Below, in pieces: positions 2,319 to 9,416 of a stretch of DNA of 32,000 bases. A program made the translations under genes and the position numbers. Origin of the DNA: Acaryochloris marina S15. Its GTDB lineage: Bacteria; Cyanobacteriota; Cyanobacteriia; Thermosynechococcales; Thermosynechococcaceae. The stretch's first letter is position 1; every line of letters starts with the position of its first letter. A model generated the notes under the pieces. It saw only the letters and a list, made by a program, of their open reading frames with translations. It did not search any database and was not told where the DNA came from. Where the stretch lies: the NCBI RefSeq assembly GCF_018336915.1, contig NZ_CP064923.1, positions 2,040,001 through 2,072,000 of the forward strand, in the 5' to 3' direction.

Positions 2319-2526
2319 TGAGCATACAATCTTGATTGTTTTGGTCTAGTAGTGAACAAATAAAAAGTCTATGCCGAAACTTGCTTCTATATTGGGTTTG
2401 CTATGAACTATTGATTTGTTAATACCTTCGCCAACTCACGAGGACCTTGTGAAAACAGATCATTGGAATATTCTAATATCCTCTTGAATACAGTGAACAA
2501 CTTGAAATTGAGCCTCAACATCATCG

Positions 2527-2919
2527 TTAAACCTGATCTGATTCACCAGGTAGCGATGGCAAGATGAATGCTGTCGCCTGATGAATGGTTGATGATCGCT
2601 CTCGGTAAGGTACTTTGCCATCAGGGCAGGCGGTATATTGCTGGCAAAACTCTAATAGTGCGGTTACTGACTCAATCGGTGACATCCCACTGAGGATAAA
2701 AGTCAACTTGCTAGGAGCAGCCAGAGTCACATTGCAAGGTTGGCTGCACTGGGCCATACATCGCACTGGCTGCAAATCAATGGCATCTTGTAGATTATCG
2801 TGAGAGATTGCAGCTTGCATCTGGTTAATCAGGTACTGTCCTCCTGAGACTCCATCACGACTTTTCTCGGTGGCAGAAAAGCGACATAGTGCACAGATAA
2901 ATAATGTGGCTTGGGTCAT
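2527..2919 (-). CDS. DUF1636 family metal-binding protein (thioredoxin-like ferredoxin fold, typically cobalamin-cluster associated)
   Basis: 130 aa with an N-terminal LFIC..C pair and RCMAQCSQPCNV, characteristic of DUF1636. Good SD (AAGGAG) 6 nt upstream of the ATG. Confidence 0.75.
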   Translation of the reverse strand: MTQATLFICALCRFSATEKSRDGVSGGQYLINQMQAAISHDNLQDAIDLQPVRCMAQCSQPCNVTLAAPSKLTFILSGMSPIESVTALLEFCQQYTACPDGKVPYRERSSTIHQATAFILPSLPGESDQV

Positions 2920-3167
2920 GTTTCACTCCTTGAAGGATAGGGCAAATCAAACGGAAGTAGCCTGGTTTCACATAAGTCCGCTGCTGGCAGGTGATATTCT
3001 TCTCAACCTTTGCAAATACTTTCATAGCTGCATGGGGGAGCAGTGGGTAAATGTCGCAAAAATATCAACGAAGCGCGATCACCCGATTTCAGCAGAAAAA
3101 TGGTATCCGTTGCAGGATCATCGTGATCGACTGCTTGGAGAATATGGCCATTGATATGATGATTTAG

Positions 3168-3632
3168 TCAGTAACCATCTTTACACCTCCTGTCAGAGCT
3201 TGGTTCCAGAGTAAATTCTGACCTGCGGTTACATACCTCGTGATAGCAATTGGGCGGGGAGATCGCTAAATTCTGCAACCAATTGATATCTACTTGCCCA
3301 TTGCCAAAAACGGCGACGAGCATATCTTGACCCGGTGGGTAGGTCCTAACCACTTCCATCAAGTGACGCACGAAATCTGTATCCAGGTTATGGATTTTCA
3401 GGTAGGGTTGTACCTCAGGCACTGGAATGTACTGAATGCTGTAGCGCACATGATCGCTACGCCAGTCTAGAGTAGAGACATCAACAACCTCTACATCACA
3501 GGCCACTAGTCCTCGCCACTGAGTCAGGTATCCTTGCCAGGCAGCATGACCTATAGATAGAAAATTTTCTCGAATAAATGCTGACTGCCAGTAGCCTGTA
3601 TAGCCCTGCCAAACATCAACTGGTAGATACAT
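3168..3632 (-). CDS. Conserved hypothetical protein (function unknown)
   Basis: 154-aa ORF with a strong SD (GGAGGA) 5 nt upstream of the ATG at 3632. Composition matches the core genome. Confidence 0.6.
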   Translation of the reverse strand: MYLPVDVWQGYTGYWQSAFIRENFLSIGHAAWQGYLTQWRGLVACDVEVVDVSTLDWRSDHVRYSIQYIPVPEVQPYLKIHNLDTDFVRHLMEVVRTYPPGQDMLVAVFGNGQVDINWLQNLAISPPNCYHEVCNRRSEFTLEPSSDRRCKDGY

Positions 3633-3855
3633 GAATTTCCTCCTGTCACTGTTGGACCACAGCCACTATGTTTTTGAGTAAAGGTGGCCACGTCTTCCTC
3701 GTGGTGTATTTTCAAACCGTAGTCAGTCACCACTTGCGGAGTGCGGTTGTTGAAATGGCTGTTTTTGATGACGATCACATCTGCGTCCAACTGAATGATG
3801 TCGCCTAACTTGTATTAGTTCAGATACGTGTGAATCTGGGGTTGGGGGTGAGCCA
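3551..3855 (-). pseudogene. Small ORF interrupted by an in-frame TAA (possible pseudogene)
   Basis: ATG at 3855 encodes MAHPQPQIHTYLN, then a TAA. The same frame continues YKLGDIIQLDADVIVIKNSHFNNRTPQVVTDYGLKIHHEED... to the stop at 3551. It overlaps the next gene by 82 nt. Confidence 0.3.
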
Positions 3856-3873
3856 TCGCCGTTTTGGCCTAGT

Positions 3874-5259
3874 TTATTGGGATTGCTTAAATTGTTCTAA
3901 TTCTTTAAAGAAGCGGTCAAATGTTCGGATATTTTGCTTGAGAGCAGTGTTAATCGAACCAAGTTTACCCATAACCGTCATATCACGGTTAATAGGCCAT
4001 AAATAGCTGACCTCAGAAGAAAATATTTTCAAGCTTTTAAGCAATCGAGTTCGGTTTTTAACGCTCTGGTGAAATCCATCATGCTCCTCGCAGAAGCAAC
4101 GTCTCATCCACTGTTTAGCGTTCAGATGACTAAATTCGAAGATAGGAGATCTGAGTAAATAATAGACAAGTGCAAAATTATCTAATCCATCCCTAGAGGA
4201 GCTGTCAGGAATGACTGCAGAGACGCTTCCAAAGCTGCTTCTTTGCATCATATAGATAACAAAATTTGCAATCAAATTCTCGTAAAGATTAGGACCTTCA
4301 AATTCTTGATATAAGTCTTTGCCCAATAGCTTAGAAATCGTTGTATGGAAAGCTTCATCTAAGAAATGGTACCGAGAGATAGCCGTAGGAGCTGGCACAA
4401 ATTTATGATTATTTTCTAACTGCTTAGCATATTTGGCAATGGGATGTTCGATATCCTTCAACTTCAAATTCGCCATCATCCGTAATGTGTAAAATTGACA
4501 AGCCATAAAGAGAGAACCTGACCCACACCCAAATCCATACAGGCTGTGTAGGGGGGTAAATGACCCCATGGCATTTTCCAGTAGTCCTCCCATTGGAGAT
4601 TTGAAAACACGTGAATTTCTCTGCTTTTTCTTGATTTTTTCAGCGTAATGGCTTGCCTGATTTCTATCCGTAAGTTTTATAGCTAGTTTTTTAGCCATAT
4701 TAAGTTGAAAAGTCGTTGCCAGCGTTCTTTGAGGTCGCCACTTGGCTAGTTCATCCAGGCTAGAACGATCAATCAAGGACACCATCGTTGTCAGGCCAAT
4801 TTTACGGAAAGCACGGATGTGGACGACTTCCTGTTCAGTTTCCATCTGAATTTCTTTTGCCAGCGTGTCATAGCCACCCATCAGTTCTAATACATCAGCT
4901 GTCACTGGGTTATAGTCCAGTGCAGTGCATTCTGTATTTGCTGTTTTGATATAAGAAGCCGCCCAGCCTAAATGATTGAGCACTAATTTTTGAGTCCTAG
5001 ATGCCTCTGCATATAGCGGCGTGCCATAAAGCAATGATTGAGCAGGCAGTGTCCAAAAATGCTCTTGATTATCTGCATAGCGAAAGTTACGGCTAAGTGC
5101 AGCAATCTTTTCGGTGTAATCCGAGTCAATGTTGTTACTATATGTGGTTTCTATAGTCCGAAAGCATCTTTGAGAAATAGAGCTTGCTCGTTTACTTTCA
5201 GAATCTGTATGCTGTTCTATAACTTGATTATCTGAGAGTGGATGTTGAGTTTGTGTCAT
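3874..5259 (-). CDS. Diiron-carboxylate (ferritin-like four-helix-bundle) enzyme of unknown function, AurF-like or possibly CylC-like oxygenase/halogenase family
   Basis: 461 aa with a duplicated ligand pattern: E110 then E144-V-V-H147, and E271 then E302-A-F-H305. Spacings are 34 and 31 residues, as in diiron carboxylate proteins. The gene looks AT-rich relative to its neighbours. Confidence 0.6.
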   Translation of the reverse strand: MTQTQHPLSDNQVIEQHTDSESKRASSISQRCFRTIETTYSNNIDSDYTEKIAALSRNFRYADNQEHFWTLPAQSLLYGTPLYAEASRTQKLVLNHLGWAASYIKTANTECTALDYNPVTADVLELMGGYDTLAKEIQMETEQEVVHIRAFRKIGLTTMVSLIDRSSLDELAKWRPQRTLATTFQLNMAKKLAIKLTDRNQASHYAEKIKKKQRNSRVFKSPMGGLLENAMGSFTPLHSLYGFGCGSGSLFMACQFYTLRMMANLKLKDIEHPIAKYAKQLENNHKFVPAPTAISRYHFLDEAFHTTISKLLGKDLYQEFEGPNLYENLIANFVIYMMQRSSFGSVSAVIPDSSSRDGLDNFALVYYLLRSPIFEFSHLNAKQWMRRCFCEEHDGFHQSVKNRTRLLKSLKIFSSEVSYLWPINRDMTVMGKLGSINTALKQNIRTFDRFFKELEQFKQSQ

Positions 5260-5310
5260 GGCAAAAATATTTATTAGAATTGATGTTTACTTCAATGCAA
5301 TGGTTTGATG

Positions 5311-5363
5311 ACCCTAAAAACTATTTTTGAATTCTTAAGGTCATCAAAAATAGTTTTTAGGGT
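5311..5363. repeat. Perfect 20-bp inverted repeat with a 13-nt spacer, in the leader between the riboswitch and the diiron gene
   Basis: ACCCTAAAAACTATTTTTGA (5311-5330) is the exact reverse complement of 5344-5363. An alternative 9-bp pairing, TTGATGACC (5305-5313) with GGTCATCAA (5339-5347), overlaps both arms. Confidence 0.9.
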
Positions 5364-5846
5364 TGTATCTATAAATGGATATGGAACGATTAACAGCTCA
5401 AAATATTTGCAGGACTAATTTTTAGTTATTCTCAGTAACTAAGTTTTTTTGAGAATAACTATTCAAAAAACTCGCTAATACATCTGAAATGCATTGCTTT
5501 TTGTCGTAATGAATTACGAAATTACCCTAAACCGTAGCTCCCGTTTTTTTGGCTATATAGGAGAAAGTGTCAGCCTTGAGTGTCCAAGATTCCAATTGAA
5601 TATTTTAGAAAAATTTAGTTCTTAAATATTCTGATCTCTGGTTGAAATATCAGGAAAACTCTTTTCAATCGTTAAATATTGAGAATAACGGTCTTGGATA
5701 CTTAGGGATGACACTTTGGTTCAATTCCCTGGTCCTTTTCATCATCAAAGCTTTGGAGTGATGCCCCAATGACAATAAAACCCTGACCTATTCAAAACTA
5801 AAACATTCATCATCTATACCTCGCAGATGTTGTAAGTGAGTAATAA

Positions 5847-5960
5847 CTCGGCGGGCATTCTGACTTTGAGGCTAACACCTCATCACAGTTGCGGGACAGC
5901 GCCGGACTTACACCGAACTTTCCCCTTTTCTTCTAACGGCTGAACCCCGTTAGAACCGAA
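5847..5960 (-). promoter_or_regulatory. Cobalamin (B12) riboswitch aptamer
   Basis: The minus strand reads TTCGGTTCTAACGGGGTTCAGCCGTTAGAAGAAAAGGGGAAAGTTCGGTGTAAGTCCGGCGCTGTCCCGCAACTGTGATGAGGTGTTAGCCTCAAAGTCAGAATGCCCGCCGAG. It contains the conserved GGGAA..GGTG.AA.TCC..GC.G.CCCGC.ACTGTGA core, a B12-box-like AGTCAGAATGCCCGCC, and P1 pairing of TTCGGT with GCCGAG. Confidence 0.8.
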
Positions 5961-7020
5961 TCTATAAAATTGTTTCTGAATACTACCACAAGAATTAAGA
6001 TTAGAAAATGTTTTAGCCTGGGATGAGTTCTTTTAGCCTGCTTCACCTTTCAAGTATTCTGGGTCATTTTACCCAATGTTTATTTGAGCTGCTGCCAATG
6101 GCTATTGAGTGCCACAACTTACCATGAGGTGATGGCCGATGATCCCGACTCTAGCGGAATTAATCCACAAGACTGAAGGCCAATCTAGAAAATAGTTCCG
6201 GTACAAGATCGGTCTTGTTTAGTGTGAAGTCGAGAATCTAGATGATAGTTTTAGGCTCTCTATTTATGTTCTGTTCCCATGCTTTCCATCCACAGAGTAT
6301 AAGGATTGTGCTCCAATCAAACACTGAGTTTAAAGACTGGCAAAGATATCCAAATAGACTTCCATCCCGTTTAATGAAATTAAGTTGTCGCTGAAAGACC
6401 ATATCAGGCATGAATTTCAGCTCTATGACCTGTTTTTATTCGGATCGTTGCCATATCTCTATATGACTCTCAGGTTTTTTGGCCGATGCATGGGTGCTGC
6501 TGCTGATATTTTTTTGATCAAGACTAATAATCTCTCAATCTTATATTTGGTAAGTATTTGAGAATGTATTTGATAATAAATTCTTCTCTAGTAAGACTTA
6601 AATAAATTAATCTTGCCTGTTATAAGAAAAATTCAATCTATTTGAATCTCTTTTCTCGCTTGGGTTGTGGGAGAGCCGAAAACTATTAATTATTTAGATA
6701 CTATTACTATTTTTAAAAGTTAACTTATAAAGGTAATAATTCCAAAAACTAAGGGCACAATACTGGTAACTGAATTTCAAGAGCAGATGAATGGTTGTAG
6801 ATTTTTCTCTACTGCTATTTTTAGTATCAAATGGCACAATAATTCTGTTATATCTCTTTGAGCCAGCATTATTGACTTTCAATTAGTTTTTATTCAGAGA
6901 ATAGGTCAGACTATTCATAGTATCTGAATTGCAACAATTGATACATCAGCTTATTAGTTCTGGTGCCATTCTTGTACAAATTGGTCGGCCTTTATGGTTC
7001 GCGACTATATGTAATTCAGG

Positions 7021-7254
7021 ATGACCGTATTCAGAATCTTTATTGGAATTACTTACATGAAAGCCCATCTTCCCGTTGTTGGATTTGCTATTGTAGTTTT
7101 AGAGTATGTTGCTTTTAAGTTTGCTTTATTAGTAGCAATGATAAAAGGGTTTTGGCCTCCAGAAATGTGTAAAACCATTGATCTAATGATGATGTTTTGT
7201 GCTATTTCTGCAACCCTATGGTTGGCATCATTACCTGTTAAAAAAAGAAACTAA
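7021..7254 (+). CDS. Possible small membrane protein (two hydrophobic segments)
   Basis: 77-aa ORF in the AT-rich region with two TM-like stretches. No homology recognised, so it may be spurious. Confidence 0.3.
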   Translation: MTVFRIFIGITYMKAHLPVVGFAIVVLEYVAFKFALLVAMIKGFWPPEMCKTIDLMMMFCAISATLWLASLPVKKRN

Positions 7255-7382
7255 GATGCTGGTTTATAGGTGAGTTTAACTCTTAAATTCCCTATTTACT
7301 AGGGTTATATAAATTAGAAAAATTACTATTAAGATACTCCCTGCTCATCGAGTAATATCTGCGAAATTGTTACGGTCAATAC

Positions 7383-9416
7383 CTACTTTACAATTGCAGG
7401 TTCAGATTTAGGCTGTGGCTTGAGGACTTGTTCCACGCGGGCCTGTCCTAAGGAATAGGTCACTGCATAACTGCGAGCGAGTAGGCTTAGCCAAAGTTGG
7501 GGAAAACGCTCTTCCAGTAAAGGCTGCAGCCAGCGAATCATTCGCGGAAACCAGGACCGAAGCAATGCATTGCCGAAGGCATCGACGGTAAAACTCCAAT
7601 AGCTGCCAAGCCAGCGGATTAAGTCTTTGGAACCCACTACGATCCAAATCCACAGGAGTAGAGCGGGATTTATAAAAGCCGCTTTGAGAGCCATCCGATT
7701 GAGGGGAAGCCAGCCAAATCGATCTTTGATAAATGCCTCTGTTACTTCTGGATCTTCTTCCTCTAGGATGCCAAAGAAAGTATTGAGCATAGAATTCACG
7801 CGCTCAGGGGGCAGATGTTTACCCGTGGGTACCATCATCCCTCGTGAAAATAACCAGGTAACGGCCACATTACTTTGGTAGGCCCGAATTTGGTTGAGGT
7901 GTTTTGCCTGTAGCAAATCGTGTTTAAGAGCAGTATCGAGTAAGTCCGTTAACCGGGGGAGGTTGCGGACTAAGGAGCCAAACCCTGTAAAAATCAAGGG
8001 AGATTGCAAGGATGCCGAATCTCCGATCGCAATGAGTCGATCAAATGCGATGGTGCGATCGGAACTATCCAAACTAAAATGTCCTGGGATATAGCCAAAC
8101 GTTGGCTTGATCCAATTCAGGTCATCTAAATCGCAACGGCGGTACTCCGGCAGGATTGTAAAAAAGTCCTCATACATCTCCAGCAAAGAACCGGGATTGT
8201 CGGGATGGACCTGATGGTAATGGAACAGATAGAACGTTAGCTCATCCCCTTTCCCAGGGAATAGCTCCCAAATTAACTGCCGTCCTCGGGAGATATCTCC
8301 GTGGCTATTGAGCACATCCCCATAGCGGGCGTCCCAGACTTCGCGATCTAACCCAGAAATGACTGCCCCCACAGTAGGACAGACGCTGTCAAAGGAACGT
8401 CCCCCATTGAGTTGCCAGGCGATGGGGGAGGCCGTTCCCATCGCGTCTACCAGCAAGCGCCCTGTGACTGTTTTCTCTGTACCACTAGGAAGATGAACGG
8501 TCTGCACACAGGCTGCATCGCCTATATCCACTCGCTGAAATTCGGTTTGGTCCCAAATTTCTCCCCCTGCTTGTCTAAGCTTGTCACCGCATAATCGCAG
8601 CAGCTGTTCCGAGTCAATGGCAATATTGAGAACCGTCGGCGTTGTTAAGACAGGGGCTTGGCACTGGGATGGATTGTTGGCATCAAAGAACTTGTGATAG
8701 CCATCTACATATTCAGAGGCGATCAAACTTTCAAATTCAGCAGGGGTGAACAATCCCAAGTCAATTAGATTAGCAAACTCGCTGCGGGAGATATTCCACT
8801 CCCGATTCATCCGTCCAAACGGTAACCGCTCGATCAGGAGAACGCGATATCCCAGGCGAGCCATGACTGCAGCGTGAATGACCCCGAGGGCACCGCCCAA
8901 ATAAACTAAATCATACTCAGGTGCACTCGATTCAGCGTTGGAAAACACTACTTGCCGAGGTTGCTTAGGTTGGCGGACGCCTTCGCGCCAGCGTTGCTCC
9001 CACCAGTAGGCCCGAGTCAGATCATATTCACCATTCGGAAACCGTTGAAAATATTGAACGGTACGCGGATAATCCTTGGCTAAGGCTGCGAAGATCGACT
9101 CTTGCTCTAAATCAATAGCGGGGGGCTTAGGGTAGTAATAGGGAAAGTGGGTTCTTAACGCCTGCTCTAGTCCTTTAACCAGCTTCTTTTCCTGCGGTAC
9201 TGGCCCAGAACCCCAGCGAAACACCTTGAGATAAGTGGTTCGTTGCAGTGACCATACAACGATGGCCAGTTCGCTAGACTGCCCTGGGAACTGTAACCGG
9301 CAACCGGAAGGTGTCGACCGCTTTTGGCCTGAGGGGTAAGTATAAGAAGATTGCAACCAATGTCTAACAGCGTCAGTATTCGGCGTGGGAATTTCTAAAT
9401 AGGAAAGTTCTTGCAT
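7383..9416 (-). CDS. cruA: FAD-dependent oxidoreductase of the CruA/CruP lycopene cyclase family (CruA-like, with a long N-terminal extension)
   Basis: 677 aa. A dinucleotide-binding motif, DLVYLGGALGVIHAAVMARLGYRVLLIE, follows an N-terminal domain of about 170 aa. The C-terminus is hydrophobic. The overall architecture is remembered from cyanobacterial CruA. Confidence 0.55.
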   Translation of the reverse strand: MQELSYLEIPTPNTDAVRHWLQSSYTYPSGQKRSTPSGCRLQFPGQSSELAIVVWSLQRTTYLKVFRWGSGPVPQEKKLVKGLEQALRTHFPYYYPKPPAIDLEQESIFAALAKDYPRTVQYFQRFPNGEYDLTRAYWWEQRWREGVRQPKQPRQVVFSNAESSAPEYDLVYLGGALGVIHAAVMARLGYRVLLIERLPFGRMNREWNISRSEFANLIDLGLFTPAEFESLIASEYVDGYHKFFDANNPSQCQAPVLTTPTVLNIAIDSEQLLRLCGDKLRQAGGEIWDQTEFQRVDIGDAACVQTVHLPSGTEKTVTGRLLVDAMGTASPIAWQLNGGRSFDSVCPTVGAVISGLDREVWDARYGDVLNSHGDISRGRQLIWELFPGKGDELTFYLFHYHQVHPDNPGSLLEMYEDFFTILPEYRRCDLDDLNWIKPTFGYIPGHFSLDSSDRTIAFDRLIAIGDSASLQSPLIFTGFGSLVRNLPRLTDLLDTALKHDLLQAKHLNQIRAYQSNVAVTWLFSRGMMVPTGKHLPPERVNSMLNTFFGILEEEDPEVTEAFIKDRFGWLPLNRMALKAAFINPALLLWIWIVVGSKDLIRWLGSYWSFTVDAFGNALLRSWFPRMIRWLQPLLEERFPQLWLSLLARSYAVTYSLGQARVEQVLKPQPKSEPAIVK

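Follow-up and report, generated by a model that had tools for sequence, protein, structure and literature searches.

The DNA analysed here, called the window below, is a stretch of 32,000 nt from Acaryochloris marina S15 (contig NZ_CP064923.1, positions 2,040,001 to 2,072,000), in which a cobalamin (vitamin B12) riboswitch on the minus strand precedes a gene encoding a 461 aa homologue of the CylC-like dimetal-carboxylate halogenases. Our reading, to which we assign a probability of roughly 0.75, is that the riboswitch is native to a metE operon, that a fragment of a halogenase cassette replaced the distal part of the leader together with the 5′ part of metE, and that the halogenase gene is probably co-transcribed from the riboswitch promoter and repressed by B12. 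A first-pass annotation of the locus had suggested a B12-independent replacement enzyme or an unrecognised corrinoid-metabolism step. That tempting lead of a new B12-related diiron enzyme is removed by our analysis, and a documented operon rewiring takes its place. What is new is the juxtaposition of riboswitch and halogenase gene, along with fossils on both sides of the junction that show its origin.

The features of the locus are listed in the order of transcription.

5976–6010, minus strand: probable promoter of the riboswitch transcript (inferred), with a −10-like TAGTAT at 5985–5980
5975–5833, minus strand: cobalamin riboswitch aptamer, RF00174, short form of 143 nt (Rfam cmscan)
5729–5832, minus strand: conserved expression platform of ~105 nt, ending at the 5′ junction of the replacement (motif and identity to the relative L081)
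5260–5728, minus strand: predicted imported, decaying leader, 30.5% GC (no homology to native loci)
3874–5259, minus strand: CylC-like dimetal-carboxylate halogenase homologue, 461 aa, intact (PF28091, motifs and predicted fold)
3622–3862, minus strand: metE pseudogene remnant, ~240 nt (tblastn and blastn against intact metE)
3168–3632, minus strand: p154, 154 aa, intact (47 homologues)
2928–3161, minus strand: p160 pseudogene remnant, C-terminal half only, with one stop (tblastn)
2527–2919, minus strand: DUF1636 protein, 130 aa, intact, last of the string (PF07845)

The riboswitch, the metE remnant and the halogenase homologue

The Rfam scan of the whole window returned a single cobalamin riboswitch, with a score of 52.4 bits and an E of 1.7e-10 (gathering score 31.5), over model positions 1–189 of 189. 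The aptamer recognized at 5960–5847 in the first-pass annotation lies inside this match (5975–5833), which sits in the 5′ leader of co-oriented genes. A regular expression for the aptamer core (GGGAA...GGUG.AA.UCC...CCCGC.ACUGU) matches 5925–5885, and the B12 box AGUCAGAAUGCCCGCC is present downstream. Besides the riboswitch, a permissive Rfam scan of 2400–7400 gave only sub-threshold matches at chance level. Orthologous aptamers stand before metE or metE remnants in the comparison loci L081, L083/L084, L087/L088, L090 and L093–L097; the Rfam scores were 67.8 bits for L081 (a Logan contig), 63.8 for plasmid pREB2 of A. marina MBIC11017 (L083/L084), and 60.8–61.7 ahead of the intact metE genes of L087/L088/L090. 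Within RF00174 the riboswitch is unremarkable and falls into the cyanobacterial metE-operon class.

The conserved cyanobacterial operon of this class comprises a cobalamin riboswitch, a long leader, metE, p154, p160 (a ~160 aa paralogue of p154, 26% identical, that follows it in intact operons), a DUF1636 gene, cobW and sometimes cbiMNQO. It is a B12-starvation operon regulated by the riboswitch. We saw it in L087–L096, L101, L105 (a plasmid of Picosynechococcus PCC 73109) and L083/L084, with intact metE and p154 behind an upstream cobalamin riboswitch in L087/L088/L090 and L093/L094/L096. The p154 gene directly follows metE in L087–L094, L096 and Picosynechococcus PCC 73109, and outside the window its start lies 17 nt ahead of the metE stop, metE being intact there (749–786 aa). 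A cyanobacterial metE cobalamin riboswitch has been validated in vivo, according to the citation of Perez et al. (2016, J Bacteriol 198:2743) in PMC9313322. The metE gene was lost or truncated independently at least five times (in A. marina MBIC11017, in the window and L081, and in the metagenome loci L095, L097 and L101/L103), with the riboswitch and p154/DUF1636 persisting.

The co-directional string that had been described as far as 2527 was confirmed, its open reading frames (ORFs) lying on the minus strand at 5259–3874, 3790–3551, 3632–3168 and 2919–2527. No intact frame with Meth_synt_1 and Meth_synt_2 (~750 aa) was found in it, only a metE remnant with stops and internal deletions. By tblastn against MetE of L087/L090, 3862–3716 corresponds to MetE residues ~656–708 (57% identity over 53 aa, E 2e-10, one stop and a 4-codon gap), and 3684–3622 to the C-terminal 21 aa (residues 765–785), with a stop; blastn of 3862–3723 against the metE genes of L087/L090 gave 67–68%. 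The small interrupted ORF noted earlier is present (3790–3551, overlapping p154), and its identity is that of the metE pseudogene remnant.

The 461 aa protein has 451 homologues, essentially all of them cyanobacterial, and the precomputed Pfam assignment is the CylC-like family PF28091, for this very protein and for every one of the 120 homologues listed. A Pfam scan with a library lacking PF28091 returned only AurF, at a sub-threshold 24.5 bits. Both active-site motifs are present, as Q143-E144-V-V-H147 and H298-F-L-D301-E302-A-F-H305, and the residues of QExxH and HxxDExxH with E110 and E271 make up a complete diiron ligand set that is invariant in 71 aligned homologues, which bears out the earlier description of a diiron-carboxylate enzyme. 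The published family signature consists of nine residues, seven of them in these two motifs; the demonstrated chemistry of the family is the chlorination of acyl chains bound to acyl carrier protein (ACP), and in vitro the CylC-type enzymes depend on a reductant of the ferredoxin type (PMC12101540). The AlphaFold2 model is all-helical (pLDDT 86.4, pTM 0.85), and the best Foldseek matches in the PDB were CmlI, AurF and R2lox (5hyg, 3chi, 2jcd and 6f6h; probability 0.87–0.98, E ~0.1, target TM ~0.45–0.53), in agreement with the literature view of CylC as a distant AurF-like enzyme of the ferritin fold. Neither the protein nor an 18-sequence profile retrieved a relevant PDB sequence, and NCBIfam had no family for the 461, 154 or 79 aa ORFs.

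The genomic neighbourhoods of 80 loci with homologues at 37–55% identity were compared. The conserved partners are an acyl-AMP ligase (FAAL) of ~611 aa, found in 60 of the 80 loci, and an ACP, found in 75; both lie directly upstream and are co-directional, an order of ligase, ACP and CylC that corresponds to the CylA-CylB-CylC arrangement (PMC12101540, PMC8406957). Neither an acyl-AMP ligase nor an ACP was found in the 32 kb window, and some published CylC subgroups also lack carrier proteins (PMC8406957). Sequence and setting mark the window protein as a divergent orphan of the CylC-like family that lacks carrier-protein partners. Conversely, p154, DUF1636, the 677 aa FAD-type protein encoded upstream of the riboswitch, HDAC and orf203 were sought near the 80 loci, and none was found there. 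The proposed co-occurrence of diiron homologues with cobalamin riboswitches did not hold: none of the 80 loci had one nearby, as judged by Rfam on 26 loci and, on all 80, by a regular expression for core and B12 box that recovers all ten known positives. The linkage of riboswitch and halogenase gene was seen only in the window and in L081, its 90%-identical relative. An unrelated HEARO RNA (RF02033, 137.9 bits) lies at 2044–2289 of L026 (Moorena bouillonii), ~4 kb upstream of the CylC-like gene.

The proposed replacement event

Only three blocks of the window are homologous to pREB2 (5999–5729, 3726–3175 and 2920–2605), and they are collinear. Homology begins at 5999 and stops at 5729; the following leader, 5260–5728, shows no homology to pREB2 or to the metE-bearing loci. 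At the other end, the metE remnant starts at 3862, which places the 3′ end of the import within ~10 nt of the halogenase stop codon. On this comparison the riboswitch appears to be native to the locus, and the import to consist of the halogenase gene and ~470 nt upstream of it only. The first-pass annotation had suspected that riboswitch and enzyme were acquired together as a cassette; an origin by import holds for the enzyme gene with its upstream ~470 nt, and the riboswitch is a native element of the metE operon. The diiron gene is also more AT-rich than its surroundings, as had been noted (GC 40.2% and 36.8% at third codon positions, against a GC of 45–53% in its neighbours).

In L081 the riboswitch is likewise followed by a CylC-like gene and then by p154, and MetE residues 701–785 are kept. 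L081 and the window thus retain different pieces of metE, which suggests one replacement followed by independent decay. The window also retains MetE residues 656–708, which are missing in pREB2, so metE was lost independently in these two lineages.

A trace of the donor cassette survives in the leader. Positions 1121–1207 of L081 translate to FALCLIKPEKILQITSGEMQHYACLSPWL, which for 43 of 61 FAAL queries matches the FAAL C-terminal motif ...KPGSIPKTSSGKIQRxACRxxFL. The best E value was 5e-7 in one search and 2.3e-6 among the 61 full-length FAAL queries. In the window the equivalent 89 nt stretch is deleted, and ~5407–5376 is the edge of this remnant of the ligase C-terminus, which is better kept in L081. 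The trace points to a fragment of a ligase-(ACP)-CylC cassette as the imported piece. A search of the 573 nt between aptamer and gene for remnants of the metE 5′ part and of an ACP gave no significant match; the one trace recovered was that of the FAAL C-terminus, in L081.

An orphan FAAL gene lies just downstream of cobW on pREB2 (L083 8543–10423; L106 6342–7767), and its product is 54–56% identical to the ligases of CylC cassettes. This gene might be the relic of a neighbouring halogenase cassette and hence of a local source for the rearrangement. By eye, the FAAL trace is ~45% identical (13/29) to the C-terminus of the A. marina ligase, against 48% for the best cassette-linked ligase; tblastn gave no match there.

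Comparison with L081 indicates which parts of the locus are under constraint. The aptamer is 90.9% identical with zero indels, and the platform is 86.4% identical. The leader is 67.8% identical (53.9% counting gaps), at about the level of synonymous sites in the halogenase gene, whose identity is ~69%. The contrast between 91% (aptamer) and 86% (platform) on the one side and 68% (leader) and ~69% (synonymous sites) on the other argues for continuing constraint on the riboswitch module and for none on the imported leader. Purifying selection acts on the halogenase gene: the proteins are 90% identical, with a ratio of non-synonymous to synonymous substitution rates (dN/dS) of 0.12 at a dS of 0.40.

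We propose that, in the common ancestor of the window organism and L081, a fragment of a halogenase cassette (the 3′ end of a FAAL gene and a CylC-type gene) was inserted by replacement. This would have removed the distal leader and ~650 codons from the start of metE (the 5′ ~85%), leaving the promoter, the aptamer and the ~105 nt platform upstream, and the metE 3′ end, p154, p160 and the DUF1636 gene downstream. The ligase trace, the metE 3′ end and p160 would later have decayed, and selection would have kept the halogenase gene, p154, the DUF1636 gene and the riboswitch.

The leader also holds a perfect 20 nt inverted repeat (5311–5330/5344–5363) interleaved with a 17 nt repeat (5304–5320/5332–5348). 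These palindromes (5304–5363) lie 45–100 nt upstream of the halogenase ATG and are largely missing from L081; a LOOT RNA match to them is sub-threshold (28 versus 46.4 bits). A 12 nt hairpin at 5423–5461 is preserved in L081 with one compensatory change.

Proposed regulation of the halogenase gene

The riboswitch promoter was placed just ahead of the aptamer, where identity to L081 climbs from 47.5% (6250–6011) to 85.7% over 6010–5976; a consensus promoter scan found no significant site in 5976–6010. Behind the aptamer, the platform contains the invariant 26 nt motif CAACAUCUGCGAGGUAnnGAUGAUGA (5832–5807), a Shine–Dalgarno-like GAGG (5821–5818) and a 22-codon ORF (5813–5745). The motif is identical in 17 loci and always directly 3′ of a cobalamin aptamer; the element (5832–5745 in the window) was found in L081, L083, L087, L090 and L093–L104. 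The genes downstream of it vary, and include metE, p154, DUF1636, a TonB-dependent receptor with a BtuF-like protein, and a membrane protein of 197–220 aa. The element is perhaps an expression platform able to act at a distance. In RNAalifold the motif pairs with the B12 box or with alternatives, in each case through invariant bases only, so that covariation is silent either way. The motif opens an ORF of 20–44 codons starting MM, which in many loci ends in a second GAUGAUGA. We considered whether this ORF encodes a selected peptide and found no evidence for it: the ORF is present in 17 of 17 loci, but the peptides diverge, and variable sites are not in excess at third codon positions (7, 11 and 9 at the three positions).

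Minimum-free-energy folding of aptamer and platform gave no intrinsic terminator, and a consensus scan of the minus strand from 7400 to 2300 found no terminator-like site. Long leaders are native to this riboswitch clade, in which the aptamer stands 350–420 nt from the start of an intact metE, ~440–500 nt from p154 where metE is lost, and 140–380 nt from other genes. The metE-bearing loci L087/L090/L093/L094 are the source of the riboswitch-to-ATG distances and of the invariant platform motif used in the comparison with metE operons. Synechococcus PCC 11901 becomes B12-independent through mutations 320 bp upstream of metE (PMC9313322). These leaders and mutations suggest that the module acts at a distance. 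The gap to the halogenase ATG is 573 nt in the window (657 nt in L081) and is, for a module of this kind, no evidence by itself against control. The earlier annotation had listed a distance of ~590 nt as a caveat, which loses force beside the 350–420 nt that separate the aptamer from intact metE.

A module acting from hundreds of nt upstream, with no minus-strand terminator predicted, favours co-transcription of the halogenase gene from the riboswitch promoter. The gene would be read through together with p154 and the DUF1636 gene, and repressed at high B12. Such B12-repressed read-through is plausible on the sequence evidence. Its best reading, in our view, is a regulatory hitch-hike: repression by B12 would be a side effect of where the gene landed, with no functional link to the vitamin. 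If the halogenase gene is so repressed, the locus illustrates how a portable riboswitch module that acts at a distance can bring newly arrived genes under its regulation.

Several observations weigh against the scenario as a whole. Only two sequences, the window and L081, carry the rearrangement, and the nearest CylC-like relative among the other loci is only 55% identical. The FAAL trace spans a mere 29–45 aa, and in the window most of it has been deleted. In the comparison with L081, p154 has a dS of 0.75 and the halogenase gene one of 0.40, about half as high. A separate promoter or a non-canonical terminator could lie within the 470 nt AT-rich leader. Finally, the window aptamer scores 11–15 bits below its two closest orthologues (L081 and pREB2), and in an alignment with 15 relatives it has four substitutions at positions that are fixed in at least 14 of the 15, to which the lower score is due. 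These are A>U in loop L2, G>A in P2, C>A in J2/3 and A>G in L4; one of them changes a U-G pair to U-A, two are loop positions and the fourth is in J2/3, and no helix is broken. The four substitutions do not indicate decay. As for the dS gap, composition or codon-usage effects and later recombination are possible causes.

The most credible alternative, though one that we hold doubtful, is that a separate promoter within the AT-rich leader drives the halogenase gene and that riboswitch transcripts end or decay before the gene. The riboswitch would then matter, if at all, through residual read-through into p154 and the DUF1636 gene. The 470 nt leader, at 30.5% GC, offers many −10-like sequences and palindromes and evolves at about the neutral rate, and clusters of the donor type express the gene without any riboswitch. 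However, a consensus scan finds neither a promoter-like nor a terminator-like site on the minus strand in 5260–5728. Riboswitch and platform are also strongly conserved after the rearrangement, which suggests that they still regulate something downstream, and all that is found downstream is past the halogenase gene.

It is also conceivable, but improbable, that the capture was not neutral, and that the halogenase gene, expressed from the metE riboswitch, was retained for a benefit to B12-limited cells. One possibility is that the co-transcribed DUF1636 protein serves as reductant and that the enzyme acts on a non-cognate ACP or a free lipid. If this were true, vitamin B12 would here for the first time be seen to control a halogenase or lipid-tailoring enzyme, and the locus would be a natural case in which gene replacement brought a riboswitch module into the service of a new pathway.

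Slightly less probable still is a riboswitch that is a dead relic, without ligand binding or regulation. The four lineage-specific changes at otherwise fixed positions, the score below L081 and pREB2, and the disappearance of metE, the original main target, could be read in this way. Against this, the match covers the full model and exceeds the gathering threshold by 21 bits, there are no indels, the identity to L081 is 91% compared with ~68% for neutral sequence, one of the changes turns U-G into U-A and two fall in loops, and the riboswitch persists in at least five other loci without metE but with p154 and/or DUF1636.

We know of no B12-dependent counterpart enzyme for a CylC-like protein. 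A functional tie of the diiron enzyme to B12, as a B12-independent substitute or a corrinoid step with adaptive linkage, is the least probable explanation of all. In its favour, two lineages have retained the arrangement, with purifying selection on the gene, and the ferredoxin-like DUF1636 protein (PMC4520260) recalls the ferredoxin-type reductant that CylC-type enzymes need in vitro (PMC12101540). Against it, none of the 80 homologues has a riboswitch or cob/met gene beside it, the flanking metE and FAAL remnants show that the linkage arose by replacement, the chemistry demonstrated for the family is the chlorination of ACP-bound acyl chains, and DUF1636 did not come in with the enzyme but is an ancestral member of the metE/cobW operon.

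Neighbouring genes and comparison with known systems

Downstream of the metE remnant, the 154 aa protein, earlier called a conserved unknown, is indeed conserved (47 homologues) and can now be placed as p154 of the metE operon. Its best named homologue is from Acaryochloris marina (74% identity), and its dN/dS is 0.17–0.23 (0.17 against L081, at a dS of 0.75). A p154 profile found nothing among PDB sequences. The AlphaFold2 model is of moderate confidence (pLDDT 71, pTM 0.64), and its only significant PDB matches were to CcmS of Synechocystis (9iur and 8zlh; E ~1e-4, TM 0.47–0.56, 15–16% identity), a carboxysome assembly factor. Some p154 homologues carry PF26649, a model absent from the Pfam library that was scanned. 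The p160 remnant at 3161–2928 corresponds to residues 80–157 of L090 p160 (56% identity, E 2.6e-25, one in-frame stop; tblastn). The DUF1636 protein matches PF07845 at 108.9 bits against a threshold of 31.6, over profile positions 1–116 of 117; its gene is 70% identical at the DNA level to the pREB2 orthologue, with a dN/dS of 0.21. The family has a thioredoxin-like, [2Fe-2S] ferredoxin-type fold (PMC4520260), and its reported association with cobalamin operons is borne out here by its place in the metE/cobW operon. No match to cobW, which follows DUF1636 elsewhere, was found in the window.

Upstream of the riboswitch, ~1.4 kb (6000–7380) is ORF-poor, with 31–36% GC and no homology to A. marina MBIC11017 or L081. 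It is followed by the gene for the 677 aa FAD-type protein (7383–9416, minus strand), with weak matches to geranylgeranyl reductase and the flavin halogenase CmlS. The window also holds dnaB, rplI, a DAHP synthase gene and two tRNAs, and the locus is probably chromosomal, in contrast to the plasmid-borne loci of pREB2 and Picosynechococcus. Two subjects deserve a study of their own: the operon of riboswitch, metE, p154, p160, DUF1636 and cobW, which has repeatedly lost metE, and the invariant 26 nt platform motif common to the leaders of metE, TonB-receptor and membrane-protein genes.

Among known ferritin-like diiron oxidases, the arylamine N-oxygenases AurF and CmlI and the R2lox proteins resemble the window protein in structure and through the sub-threshold Pfam AurF match. 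The window protein is 150–180 residues longer than these and has no sequence-level match in the PDB, even by profile. With the CylC and NocO halogenases (PF28091; Eusebio et al. 2021, PMC8406957; PMC12101540) it shares the signature residues, the ferritin-like fold and the cyanobacterial distribution. It differs from them in having no adjacent acyl-AMP ligase, ACP or biosynthetic cluster, in being ~25 residues shorter near position 195 than most homologues, in its position behind a B12 riboswitch, and in an identity to other members, L081 apart, of at most 55%.

The regulatory half of the locus has its counterpart in the metE locus on the plasmid of Picosynechococcus sp. PCC 73109, where the riboswitch is of the same family and p154 overlaps the metE stop codon. 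Unlike in the cyanobacterial metE operon, metE in the window is a fragment with the halogenase gene in its place, and cobW and cbiMNQO are missing downstream. The closest named relative of the native parts is pREB2 of A. marina MBIC11017 (NC_009927.1, 109.7–111.5 kb), which has the same 143 nt aptamer form and is identical to the window at 87.6% in the riboswitch block, 78% in the p154 block and 70% in DUF1636. The order there is riboswitch, 94 aa metE remnant, p154, 58 aa remnant, DUF1636 and cobW. On pREB2, metE was lost by an internal in-frame deletion, which left the 94 aa fusion of its N- and C-terminal parts and no CylC-like gene, and, unlike the window, the plasmid retains cobW, followed by an acyl-AMP ligase gene.

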